Positions 14,773 through 17,311 of a stretch of DNA of 64,000 nt are shown one piece after another. The notes beneath the pieces are model-generated. The model was not told the origin of the DNA. It worked only from the letters and a program-made list of their open reading frames with translations, and searched no databases. Origin of the DNA: Alphaproteobacteria bacterium (lineage in GTDB: Bacteria; Pseudomonadota; Alphaproteobacteria; UBA9219); the NCBI GenBank assembly GCA_026225415.1, contig JAMFSS010000006.1, forward strand, positions 161,046-225,045. Reading direction: 5' to 3'. The stretch's first letter is position 1; the number at the start of each line of letters is the position of its first letter. A program made the position numbers and the translations under genes.

Positions 14773-15522
14773 ATGACATCCGTTTCTTCCAGCACAACCA
14801 GCGCGCAACAAACCCAGATTCTTTTGCTGCAGCAACAACAGCTTGCCGCCCAGAATGCCTTGATCACGGATCTGAGCAGCAATACAGGCTCAACATCGTC
14901 AACCGGCCTTACCGGAACATCGTCATCGTCGACCGATGCCGTTTATCAACAAAGCCCCATCGCCCAAAGTTTCCAATCGCTGGTTCAGGCATTGCAATCC
15001 GGCAATCTTGCCGATGCGCAACAGGCCTATTCCGCGCTTAGCCAGCTGACCAGCGGCACAAGCAGCGCCAGTAGCACAAGTCAGGGTTATGGCCAGAACG
15101 GTCAAGCAACTTCGGCGAGTAATGGTTTTACGCAAGCGTTGGCGCAAGTGGGCGCGGCTTTGCAATCCGATAATCTGGCGGGTGCGCAACAGGCGTTGGC
15201 ATCGTTACAGGGTGCGGGATCAAGCCATAGCGGCGGCGGTGCGTCTTCCGGCGGCGCGGGTGGTCCGGGTTCATCAGCTTCATCTTCGACACAGGCGGGA
15301 ACCGTGACAACAATTAACGCCGACGGCACCACAACTATTACCACCACGGATGCCAGCGGGAATGTGACGGTGACAACCGAAGCGGCACCGACGACTAACG
15401 AAACAAGTTCGACGCAGGCAAGCGCCGACCAAACCGGCACGATGCAAACAGGATCGACAACGGAAGACGCAACTGCTTTGCAACAGCTGTTGGCTTCTAT
15501 TGAAGGCCAAGTATCCATCTAA
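14773..15522 (+). CDS. Ser/Thr/Gly/Gln-rich low-complexity (likely disordered) protein with internal repeats
   Basis: 250 aa from MTSVSSSTTSAQQTQ with an AAGGAG RBS upstream. Repeated segments LVQALQSGNLADAQQAYSALSQL and LAQVGAALQSDNLAGAQQALASLQGAG. High GC. Confidence 0.55.
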   Translation: MTSVSSSTTSAQQTQILLLQQQQLAAQNALITDLSSNTGSTSSTGLTGTSSSSTDAVYQQSPIAQSFQSLVQALQSGNLADAQQAYSALSQLTSGTSSASSTSQGYGQNGQATSASNGFTQALAQVGAALQSDNLAGAQQALASLQGAGSSHSGGGASSGGAGGPGSSASSSTQAGTVTTINADGTTTITTTDASGNVTVTTEAAPTTNETSSTQASADQTGTMQTGSTTEDATALQQLLASIEGQVSI

Positions 15523-15539
15523 TATTTTAGGTATCCAAG

Positions 15540-16013
15540 ATGCATGGCATCGGTTCCATCGGAATCCACCCGGCAAATTTTGCTTCTCAGGGAACGGGGA
15601 TGAACAGCCCGAGCGGCGCGTCCGGTTCGGGCTTTCATCTCGCTTCCCTGACAGGCGGGGTGGGGCAACCGGTGGCGCGTGGCGTTTCATCGACCGGCAC
15701 CGGGTCGTTGGGGTCGCAAACGGTATCGACGCTTTTGCAAACGCAAGACCTTAGCCAAACACAAATTCGCGGTGGTGGCGGTCATGGCGGCGGCGGGCAT
15801 CACGGCATGAAGATGGTGGCCGGTGGGGAGACAGAAGAAACAATGGAGGCGGAAGAAGCATCATCACTGCATGCGCAGAAAAAAACCGGCAAAACCGCTG
15901 TGGCTTCGGATGCGGAACAAGTCGCAGAGAGCGGTGAAGAAGGCGATGTTACGCCAGAGGCGAAAGATAAGCCGCAAAACGCAACCAATAAAGACCTGCG
16001 CACAAACCGATAA
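15540..16013 (+). CDS. Gly/Ser/Thr-rich low-complexity protein with acidic C-terminus
   Basis: 157 aa. Contains GGGGHGGGGHHG and an acidic tail. Its last ~65 nt overlap the 3' end of the convergent prepilin peptidase gene, so the exact stop is uncertain. Confidence 0.4.
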   Translation: MHGIGSIGIHPANFASQGTGMNSPSGASGSGFHLASLTGGVGQPVARGVSSTGTGSLGSQTVSTLLQTQDLSQTQIRGGGGHGGGGHHGMKMVAGGETEETMEAEEASSLHAQKKTGKTAVASDAEQVAESGEEGDVTPEAKDKPQNATNKDLRTNR

Positions 16014-16488
16014 ACAAAAATGGCGCAAAGGTGATCTGGCTGACTTGGTAACGCAGAAGACGCGCAAAGCCGATATAGAGGCTGGCCAAAATTGCGCCCA
16101 CGCCCCACGCATAAACACACGGCGTCACACCGAAACAGGCAACCGCCAGCATCGTCCATTTGGCATCGCCCATGCCCAGCGCGTCATAACGGAAATGGCG
16201 ATACCACAGGGTATTAACCGCCCAGATGAAAAAACCGGCGGCCAACGCGTAACGAAAATGCCAGGCCGCGCTTTCCCATGATGAATAAAGGGTCTGGGCG
16301 ATGAAGATGCCGATAAGCCCCAGCAGGATAAAAACATCCGGCACGATTTCGGTAAAGGCATCAATAGTGGCGGACAACGCAAGGATGCCCAGAACGCCTG
16401 CCGCGACCCACCAATAGGCGGGCGGCATGCCGGGCGCTGCTGTTTCGGTAATGGTTCTTAGAATATCCAGCGGAGGGAAAACGAACAT
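15949..16488 (-). CDS. A24-family prepilin peptidase (CpaA/TadV-like)
   Basis: 179 aa polytopic membrane protein with the GMGDAKW motif (compare GGGDVKL of prepilin peptidases). Confidence 0.7.
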   Translation of the reverse strand: MFVFPPLDILRTITETAAPGMPPAYWWVAAGVLGILALSATIDAFTEIVPDVFILLGLIGIFIAQTLYSSWESAAWHFRYALAAGFFIWAVNTLWYRHFRYDALGMGDAKWTMLAVACFGVTPCVYAWGVGAILASLYIGFARLLRYQVSQITFAPFLFIGLCAGLYWLRFAAYLSPLA

Positions 16489-16497
16489 TGTAAAATG

Positions 16498-17118
16498 TTA
16501 CGGCAAACAATGGCTATCTGCCGAACCTGTTGGCGGCGAAATCCAGGCGATGAATTTTTGCGAAGCGCTGGTCGGGTCGTAAATCACTTCTGTCGTCGCG
16601 CTGTAGGCGGCCGAGCTGTTAAATTTGGAAGCGGCACGCACCAAACCTGCGACCAACGCGGTATCGCCAAGCGGCGATGCTTCGGTCGGGGTCGCCCAGA
16701 TGCAACGGCCACCGCCCGAACCGGACGCATCGATATAGGTCCAGGGGTTAAGGCCTTTGGTGGGGGGTGGCAACAATTTGTCGCCCCACAAAGATGCGCT
16801 ACCTGTCGGGTTGCATACCACGGCGGAAACAAGCGTACCATTGCTGGGGTCGGATGTCGGGTAGGTATCGCTGCTTGGCGCGACAGAGCCGGTTGATACG
16901 GCCAGCAAATATTGCAAATTACATTCATTGATCGTGTTGCGGATCAAATTGACTTGTGCCGCGACATCATTGGTGATGCGGTCGGAAACGGTTGCGGTCT
17001 GAAAATCGCCGCCGCCGCCCGCCATCACGGCTGCCAAAATGGCCAGCAAGGCGATGATGAACAGAATAGGCCCGATGGCGATACCGGCTTGGGACGAAAA
17101 TCTTTTTTGGCGGCTCAT
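16498..17118 (-). CDS. pilin-like protein with prepilin-type N-terminal hydrophobic segment
   Basis: Starts MSRQKRFSSQAGIAIGPILFIIALLAILAAVMAGGGG, a short charged leader followed by about 20 hydrophobic residues. The globular part has 4 Cys. The gene lies 9 nt upstream of the prepilin peptidase. Confidence 0.5.
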   Translation of the reverse strand: MSRQKRFSSQAGIAIGPILFIIALLAILAAVMAGGGGDFQTATVSDRITNDVAAQVNLIRNTINECNLQYLLAVSTGSVAPSSDTYPTSDPSNGTLVSAVVCNPTGSASLWGDKLLPPPTKGLNPWTYIDASGSGGGRCIWATPTEASPLGDTALVAGLVRAASKFNSSAAYSATTEVIYDPTSASQKFIAWISPPTGSADSHCLP

Positions 17119-17131
17119 GCGGTTCTCCGGC

Positions 17132-17311
17132 TTAATGGGCGTCGGTGTGGACGGCGTTTTTATCCAAAACGAAATGCTTGCCGCAATAGGGGCAATCGAC
17201 AAAGCCTTGGGTATTGACGGTCAGGAAAACGCGCGGATGCGGCGATGCGGCGTCACCGTCGCAAGCGGTTTTGGAGGTGAAAATTTCGACAGCTTGTGGT
17301 GCGGAAGACAT
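17132..17311 (-). CDS. zinc-finger domain miniprotein (CPYCG-type, conserved in alphaproteobacteria)
   Basis: Manual translation gives MSSAPQAVEIFTSKTACDGDAASPHPRVFLTVNTQGFVDCPYCGKHFVLDKNAVHTDAH (59 aa). The + ORF 17039..17317 is its shadow. Confidence 0.6.
   Translation of the reverse strand: MSSAPQAVEIFTSKTACDGDAASPHPRVFLTVNTQGFVDCPYCGKHFVLDKNAVHTDAH

Follow-up and report, generated by a model that had tools for sequence, protein, structure and literature searches.

What does a prepilin peptidase do in a stretch of DNA that holds no filament machinery? The question is raised by a 64,000-nucleotide stretch from an alphaproteobacterium of the lineage UBA9219 (GenBank assembly GCA_026225415.1, contig JAMFSS010000006.1, positions 161,046 to 225,045 of the forward strand), the whole of which we call the window. 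A first-pass annotation of this DNA had described an orphan A24 prepilin peptidase encoded beside an atypical pilin-like protein of 206 amino acids (aa), and had suggested that these and three neighbouring genes might form a minimal module. We have compared the genes with their relatives in other genomes. The conclusion that emerges is that the 206-aa protein is probably a prepilin-like subunit and the 179-aa protein its dedicated leader peptidase, the two together making up one half of a split type IV filament system that is conserved across a large group of uncultured Micavibrio-related Alphaproteobacteria. This is based on family membership, sequence motifs, predicted fold and gene linkage.

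The prepilin-like protein and its peptidase

The two genes lie in tandem on the minus strand, with a gap of 9 nucleotides (nt) between the stop codon of the first and the start codon of the second. Their principal features are as follows.

16498..17118, minus strand: prepilin-like protein of subfamily A, a candidate type IV filament subunit, 206 aa
17083..17118, minus strand: leader peptide, residues 1-12 (MSRQKRFSSQAG), net charge +3, ending in the invariant Gly12
17020..17082, minus strand: predicted mature N-terminus IAIGPILF (residues 13-20, Pro17 being position +5) and hydrophobic helix to residue 33, with no acidic residue
15949..16488, minus strand: A24 prepilin peptidase containing GMGDAKW, 179 aa
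16360..16362, minus strand: codon of Asp43, the predicted first catalytic Asp (motif A40..D43......P50), conserved in at least 97% of 38 homologues
16159..16176, minus strand: GMGDAK motif, G105-K110, with Asp108, the predicted second catalytic Asp from the homologue alignment

The 206-aa protein gave no match to Pfam or NCBIfam at E ≤ 0.1, including the N_methyl and TIGR02532 models, and a profile of its family, which we call subfamily A, gave none to PDB sequences. It has 386 homologues at E ≤ 1e-3, every one annotated as hypothetical and every one from a metagenome-assembled alphaproteobacterium. Some of these metagenome-assembled genomes (MAGs) are labelled Micavibrio or 'Bdellovibrionales', the order in which the NCBI taxonomy keeps Micavibrio.

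Alignment of 36 homologues (47-79% identity) reveals a sharp boundary. The leader varies in both length and sequence, and conservation begins abruptly at Gly12; G12, A14, I15, G16, P17, I18, L19 and F20 are invariant. So are Cys66, 102, 139 and 204, the four cysteines that had been counted in the first-pass annotation, together with a C-terminal Cys-x-Pro. These features are far beyond what chance would give. Directly after the predicted cleavage site comes a hydrophobic helix of ~20 residues, IAIGPILFIIALLAILAAVMA, which is identical or nearly so in subfamily A and in a second subfamily, B, described below. A basic leader and hydrophobic helix lacking the GFTLIE or G/XXXXEY consensus had been noted previously, and this is correct; position +5 is occupied by Pro. 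A basic leader that varies, followed by an invariant Gly and then by the same hydrophobic helix throughout, points to a class III (prepilin) signal, in which cleavage is predicted between G12 and I13. A paralogue beginning G-IAIAPILM retains Gly at -1, which suggests that the cut would follow the first Gly and not the second.

A structure predicted by AlphaFold2 (AF2) from the subfamily A alignment (pLDDT 86.5, pTM 0.74) has a helix spanning residues 15-75 followed by a small beta domain. This is the long alpha-1 helix on an antiparallel beta sheet by which the pilin fold is recognised, and Thermus PilA4 and CofB are among the comparators. By its invariant G-IAIGPILF sequence and its modelled fold, the 206-aa protein is a non-canonical prepilin-like protein, and the proposal that it is an atypical peptidase substrate of this kind is thus borne out.

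About 34 residues past the predicted cleavage site subfamily A has an invariant Asp46 followed by Arg47 in at least 90% of sequences, and in subfamily B Glu and Arg/Lys are found about as far along. That the Asp-Arg pair is a charge pair standing in for the Glu5 of canonical pilins is pure speculation. One database protein, P0028 (265 aa), joins a zf-CHCC domain to a pilin-like protein; this is probably a mis-called start or a read-through of adjacent genes, not a true fusion.

The peptidase lies where it had been placed, and its assignment is confirmed by a match to Pfam PF01478 of 31.7 bits (cutoff 26.5). Its homologues score 24.5-28.5 bits, so that the family is borderline to the model. The 38 homologues aligned are 157 to ~200 aa in length, bar a few over-extended open reading frame (ORF) calls, and D43, G105xG107D108A109xW111 and F154xPFL158 are conserved in at least 97% of them. 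Two Asp residues are universally conserved in prepilin peptidases (PMC10191384), and by analogy with these D43 and D108 are predicted to be the catalytic pair. A24 is the only Pfam domain in the 179-aa protein; the four-Cys methyltransferase domain of the PilD/GspO type is absent. A search against PDB sequences gave no match.

Linkage of the two genes was analysed in 58 related loci. The peptidase gene is directly downstream of the A pilin gene in 40 of them, down to ~35% pilin identity. Might the peptidase nevertheless work for a Tad/Flp locus, or another canonical type IV pilus locus, at some other place in the genome, and stand next to the 206-aa gene only incidentally? It shares its short, methylase-less architecture with TadV/CpaA (PMC10191384), and Micavibrio genomes do hold Flp and canonical prepilin genes (PMC3189940). 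Yet the pair is conserved in 40 loci over this range of divergence, and in three lineages (L057, L058 and L059) the peptidase gene closes a GspE-type operon in which there is neither a Flp nor a Glu5 pilin. The borderline scores on the A24 model (24.5-31.7 bits) also fit specialisation for a divergent substrate. We therefore consider service to a canonical pilus very unlikely, and a dedicated peptidase for the 206-aa protein is the reading that we retain.

Filament machinery in related genomes

The absence of secretin, ATPase and platform genes around the pair, as originally described, extends to the whole window. A tblastn search with the secretin, ATPase and platform proteins of relatives found nothing in the 64 kb, and a motif search found no T2SSE-type Walker A sequence, canonical Glu5 prepilin motif or Flp motif, nor a second GxGDxK peptidase or a second protein of the G-IAIGP type. 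For the relatives, a scan of GTDB species representatives gave 78 loci.

Many MAGs with an A locus hold a second locus, whose pilin matches the 206-aa query over the first ~60 residues only. A six-frame motif search showed that the two subfamilies share the G-IAIGPILF start, after which subfamily A continues ...DRITADIxxQANLIR and subfamily B ...AIAAGSGSFT; no similarity between their globular domains was detected by hhalign. In all, 89 pilin-like proteins from the 78 loci carry G-IAIGPILF. Position +5 is Pro in 89 out of 89, and there is no acidic residue among the first 25 mature residues of any, although the B loci were fetched with the pattern GIAIGPILF, so that invariance of the motif is partly by construction in subfamily B but not in subfamily A.

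The second, or B, locus encodes in order a secretin, an Ig-like protein, a T2SSE ATPase, a T2SSF platform, two proteins of no known family (~350 and ~190 aa) and at least one B pilin. The secretin belongs to PF00263, with MshL the best NCBIfam model, and the Ig-like protein (~450 aa) is of the ASH / HYDIN-VesB-like type. The ATPase scores best against GspE (262 bits), followed by TfpB (241) and PilB (228), all far under the NCBIfam cutoffs, and its best PDB matches are EpsE/GspE (1e-59) and PilB (6e-54). The platform is a single protein with two T2SSF repeats. ATPases from the different loci are 68-80% identical to that of L058, and at least 909 homologues match a member of the ATPase family at E ≤ 1e-100.

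In three lineages the two loci are fused. L058 is a complete MAG chromosome of 1.64 Mb, and here one operon contains the ATPase, the platform, orf342, orf199, three B pilins, two A pilins and the A24 peptidase, with the secretin and Ig-like genes upstream. L057 and L059 have a similar layout, and in all three the peptidase is the last gene. In a further 17 MAGs the A locus and the B/machinery locus are found on separate contigs, a count that is a lower bound, as B loci were detected only via N-terminal similarity. As most genomes divide the system between two or three loci, caution is due in calling a peptidase 'orphan' from a single locus. The description of an orphan peptidase in a minimal module is not upheld, as the relatives carry a full secretin, ATPase and platform machine, fused with the pair in three lineages. 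A complete tad/cpa locus elsewhere had been named, together with a recognised non-pilin fold of the 206-aa protein, as what would overturn that description; a machine there is, in the relatives, but of the GspE/PilB type and not tad/cpa. In the window genome the machine presumably lies elsewhere, as judged from co-occurrence in relatives.

A different possibility is that the peptidase cleaves the 206-aa protein but that the product is never polymerised, acting as a membrane-associated, periplasmic or surface protein with a class III signal and no ATPase/secretin machine. Archaeal sugar-binding proteins processed by PibD provide a precedent, and neither the window nor most of the relatives have any machinery beside the pair. 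The A globular domain has no similarity to that of B detectable by hhalign, and its conservation, two probable disulfides and invariant C-terminal Cys-x-Pro would suit a specific binding or enzymatic role. Against this, the A genes and the peptidase close the machinery operon in the three fused lineages, and A and B have an identical N-terminal helix of the polymerisation type. Moreover, the predicted fold is that of a pilin, and the pilins of known systems likewise differ completely in their globular domains. Stand-alone processing is therefore unlikely, and we favour a filament subunit.

Some observations weigh against that interpretation, in addition to the pattern-based retrieval of the B loci. 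Glu5, near-universal in bacterial pilins, is absent from the 206-aa protein. The peptidase does not adjoin the A pilin gene in 18 of the 58 loci, these belonging to the Micavibrio-labelled clade. The two post-platform proteins belong to no recognisable family, and are equated with PilMNO or GspLM by assumption. Cleavage, polymerisation and function are all inferred, and a second locus was not found for the window genome itself, within the 64-kb window or through the one ATPase candidate that was traced, which came from another MAG. This candidate, P0151, belongs to GCA_964449155.1, and gave another pair of A and B loci in one MAG. A search with the window's own pilin gave no more than a Logan contig of 1.7 kb.

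The A pilins without a downstream peptidase are those of L024-L027, L031-L037, L039-L042, L045-L047 and L054, in a clade that includes the Micavibrio-labelled MAGs. Either the genes of the system occupy three or more loci here, or the peptidase is a different one.

Both pilin subfamilies are often tandemly duplicated (L020 3781/4422, L055 10031/10808, L058 7772-10579, L066, L067, L078 and L080), with five pilin-like genes in a row in L058, which suggests diversification of filament subunits. The relatives' operons contain no canonical Glu5 prepilin gene. Canonical Glu5 prepilin-like genes (~175-180 aa) do occur divergently upstream of the secretin in two Micavibrio-type loci, L062 (~862, minus strand) and L070 (~1976, minus strand), with the starts G|LSLLEAAI... 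and G|FSLTESAI..., an arrangement that is not kept in other loci. Canonical and Pro5-type pilins thus coexist in those genomes.

Neighbouring genes and the wider locus

Could the genes on either side of the pair belong to the same system? The remaining features of the locus are these.

17132..17311, minus strand: zf-CHCC miniprotein containing CPYCG, 59 aa
15540..16013, plus strand: low-complexity protein LC2, 157 aa
14773..15522, plus strand: low-complexity protein LC1, 249 aa counted from an ATG preceded by an AAGGAG Shine-Dalgarno sequence
17338..17366, minus strand: sigma-70-like promoter match TTTACC-17-TATGAT, from a consensus scan only, 27 nt upstream of the zf-CHCC start
15890..15908, minus strand: terminator-like hairpin and T-run, from a pattern scan only, 41 nt past the peptidase stop and within the LC2 frame of the opposite strand

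The CPYCG miniprotein is encoded 13 nt upstream of the 206-aa gene, as stated in the first-pass annotation, and is a member of the zf-CHCC family (Pfam PF10276, E = 5e-12, 46 bits against a cutoff of 27). It is possibly co-transcribed with the pilin gene. However, its gene occupies this position in only 14 of the 58 related loci, all of them closest relatives, and is absent from the fused operons. It is a lineage-specific neighbour and not a filament component, and a role within the system, for example as a substitute for the Zn-binding methylase domain, is unsupported.

LC1 is rich in Ser, Thr, Ala, Gln and Gly, and LC2 in Gly and Ser; neither has a match in Pfam or NCBIfam. Repeats of the type LQSxNLAxAQQA had been attributed to both proteins. 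They are real in LC1, which has two ALQSxNLAxAQQA motifs encoded by a 39-nt direct repeat (14988-15026 and 15156-15194, 85% identical), and do not occur in LC2.

The concern that these reading frames might not be conserved is dispelled, as both are genuine genes with orthologues. Two orthologues of LC1 (P0241 and L089:4274-4981) are 49-52% identical to it, with the same architecture in unrelated contexts. Common to them are a start of MTSVSSSTT, two helices reading ALQSG(N/D)LxGAQQAF, a beta segment with VTTxNxDGT and a C-terminal LxxLL. A search of 1.84 billion cluster representatives gave 28 matches to LC2, one of them its own entry; identity is 35-64% for the other 27, most of which match over the full length, and the core TLLQTQDLSQTQ..GGGHGGGGHHG is conserved. 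The AF2 model of LC1 (pLDDT 56) contains two helical hairpins and a small beta meander, with disorder elsewhere, and nothing in it suggests a filament.

The LC1-LC2 tandem recurs in L089 (4274-5462) and L090 with a 19-nt spacer, again in an unrelated context. Neighbours of the homologues include xanthine dehydrogenase/TauD, MlaC/OprB/RND and gidA/gidB genes, and in one other genome the cassette sits between the MlaC and OprB/RND genes. In L087 the LC1 orthologue adjoins the gene for a CsoR-type metal repressor, which makes a metal link possible. The window LC1 sequence is absent from a 5.8-billion-protein collection, in which its best match is 49% identical and LC2 and the pilin are present at 100%; apparently LC1 was missed by the collection's gene finder despite its strong Shine-Dalgarno sequence and clear orthologues.

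Might the zinc-finger protein, the pilin-like protein, the peptidase, LC1 and LC2 together make up a novel minimal module for a filament or for surface proteins? Their genes lie close together, with gaps of 13 and 9 nt and an overlap of the convergent LC2 and peptidase 3′ ends, estimated before as about 65 nt and in fact exactly that (15949-16013), and the two LC genes are genuine and conserved. But neither LC1 nor LC2 was found in any of the 78 related pilin loci, and no pilin or peptidase gene was found beside an LC homologue. The co-occurrence with the peptidase that had been put forward for investigation was thus seen in none of the 78 loci. In the closest representative, L004, the interval corresponding to the LC genes holds a serine dehydratase and a glycosyltransferase instead. 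With LC1 predicted to be mostly disordered and the zf-CHCC gene adjoining in so few loci, such a five-gene module is highly improbable. The LC genes are never beside pilin or peptidase genes elsewhere, and in view of their unrelated contexts a link to the pilin module is rejected. LC1-LC2 is an independent cassette that abuts the peptidase by chance, and we return to the pilin and its peptidase as the relevant pair.

The sequence upstream of the zf-CHCC gene includes the promoter match at 17338..17366, which is a weak candidate for the promoter of a zf-CHCC/pilin/peptidase transcript; the consensus scan found 5 sites where 3.5 were expected. The hairpin at 15890-15908 is the sole terminator-like hairpin downstream of the peptidase gene on that strand, and sits in the LC2 coding region. 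Given this position and the 65-nt overlap, the convergent units must interfere or share a bidirectional terminator.

Further out, Rfam identified only a tRNA-Leu over 12-19 kb. Directly downstream of this tRNA-Leu(GAG) (12806-12892) is, within the region 12893-14500, a Fic/SoFic-like adenylyltransferase gene (13217-14338) with a GC content of 0.40 against ~0.55 in its neighbours. An imperfect 16-nt AT-rich direct repeat flanks the gene (12918-12933 and 14456-14471), possibly by chance. The Fic region looks like a small island inserted at the tRNA. Two small minus-strand ORFs occur in no related locus: 18630-19001 (123 aa, GC 0.40), between an ABC ATPase gene and ispB, and 17407-17589 (60 aa), between the ABC ATPase gene and the zf-CHCC gene. 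These are lineage-specific insertions in the otherwise conserved hemC-hemD-hemY-ispB-ABC synteny.

Proposed assembly and relation to known filament systems

How might such a system work? The prepilin would enter the inner membrane by way of its hydrophobic N-terminal helix. The A24 aspartyl peptidase, through D43 and D108, would then cut the basic leader after Gly12 at the cytoplasmic face, exposing Ile-Ala-Ile-Gly-Pro-Ile-Leu-Phe. As the peptidase has no methylase domain, the mature subunit would stay without N-methylation. The mature A subunit would be extracted and polymerised together with the subfamily B pilin of the same N-terminus, by the GspE/PilB-type ATPase, the GspF-type platform and the two family-less inner-membrane proteins, and the filament would pass through the outer-membrane secretin or work beneath it. 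As every subunit has Pro at +5 and a helix free of acidic residues, assembly would have to proceed without the salt bridge from Glu5 to the N-terminus, implying a different packing.

The window protein is more likely to be a minor or accessory subunit than the major one, since the B genes come right after the machinery and are often duplicated, and the A genes come last before the peptidase. This order of B then A resembles that of major then minor pilins in gsp operons. The filament may be a pilus on the cell surface, or an endopilus in the periplasm that powers secretion. Secretion is suggested by GspE being the best match of the ATPase, by the finding of no PilT or other retraction ATPase in the relatives' operon and by the position of the peptidase as last gene. 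A pilus is suggested by the large type IVb-like subunits with disulfides and by the MshL-like secretin.

Taking a broader view, we see about an even chance that the pair marks an unrecognised branch of the type IV filament superfamily, in which all subunits begin Gly|Ile-Ala-Ile-Gly-Pro, lack Glu5 and N-methylation, need their own divergent A24 peptidase and assemble independently of Glu5, by a mechanism that would be new for bacteria, and which would include the 'missing' pseudopilins of the secretion/attachment apparatus of Micavibrio. The genome paper of M. aeruginosavorus ARL-13 described a 'functional' type II secretion system (T2SS) in which GspC, G, H and K had not been annotated (PMC3189940). 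Unrecognised pseudopilins of the Pro5 type would explain that gap. Such a branch may be widespread in Micavibrio-like, possibly predatory or epibiotic, Alphaproteobacteria. In the literature on Micavibrio pseudopilins, Micavibrionales secretion systems and Glu5-less filaments we found no account of such a system.

The pair would then point to a filament system of unusual subunit chemistry that is widespread yet unannotated, in a clade with a cultivable predator among its members. This epibiotic predator, Micavibrio aeruginosavorus, has an annotated T2SS whose missing pseudopilins would be accounted for. In bacterial type IV pilins and pseudopilins, Glu5 and the salt bridge that it forms with the neighbouring N-terminus are treated as near-universal and mechanistically important (PMC10191384). 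A system in which every subunit has Pro5 would thus be a natural experiment on the requirements for filament assembly and membrane extraction. It would also mean that pilin detection based on motifs (N_methyl, GFTLIE, Flp) overlooks whole pilin families.

How does the system compare with those already known? It would operate in the manner of a T2SS or type IV pilus machine, and at the level of domains it belongs to the type IV filament superfamily, with the Secretin, T2SSE and T2SSF families present in the relatives' loci, but the traits that define each named subtype are lacking. It falls under all the Gsp, Pil and Msh equivalog cutoffs (GspE 262 against 630 bits, GspD 59 against 351 and GspF 41 against 424), and there is no recognisable GspC/L/M or PilMNO in the relatives; none of the Gsp models is matched by the Ig-like protein or by either of the proteins encoded after the platform.

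With the T2SS the relatives share a secretin, a GspE-like ATPase, a GspF-like platform and several pilin-like genes followed by a peptidase at the end of the operon. The Micavibrio literature labels such genes T2SS (PMC3189940). However, Glu5 is replaced by Pro5 in the pilins, which show no N_methyl motif, the peptidase is without the methylase domain found in GspO, and the relatives have the ~450-aa Ig-like protein between secretin and ATPase. The pilins are also larger, at ~195-205 aa after processing compared with ~135-145 aa for processed GspG.

From the type IVb pili (TCP, CFA/III and BFP) and MSHA the system differs in having pilins with no detectable sequence similarity and no Glu5, a single-domain leader peptidase, and different gene content and order.

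The short, methyltransferase-less peptidase recalls TadV/CpaA of the Tad/Flp (type IVc) systems (PMC10191384). Nevertheless, the window has no Flp motif (G/XXXXEY), and the relatives' ATPase is of the GspE/PilB type, its only match to the TadA family being the conjugal-transfer-associated TIGR03819 at 46 bits compared with 262 for GspE. The platform is a single two-domain T2SSF protein and not TadB plus TadC. The subunit is 194 aa after processing, and Flp pilins are far shorter. A Tad/Flp identity is excluded by the absent motif, the ATPase and the platform.

Archaeal type IV pilins and archaellins (FlaK/PibD) are alike in having class III signals without a conserved Glu5 and methylase-less A24 peptidases. 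The present system is in contrast bacterial and diderm, with a secretin and a GspE/PilB-type ATPase, and the sequence IAIGPILF from +1 to +8 is unlike the archaeal motifs.

Finally, a Glu5-less pilin-like protein is not in itself without parallel in a type IV filament system, as the tip minor pilins of the GspK/PilK class are of this kind (PMC10191384). Glu5 normally neutralises the N-terminal charge and makes the inter-subunit salt bridge, and in known systems only the tip subunit lacks it (PMC10191384). There it is one capping subunit that is without Glu5; here it is every recognisable subunit, in both subfamilies and in all paralogues.

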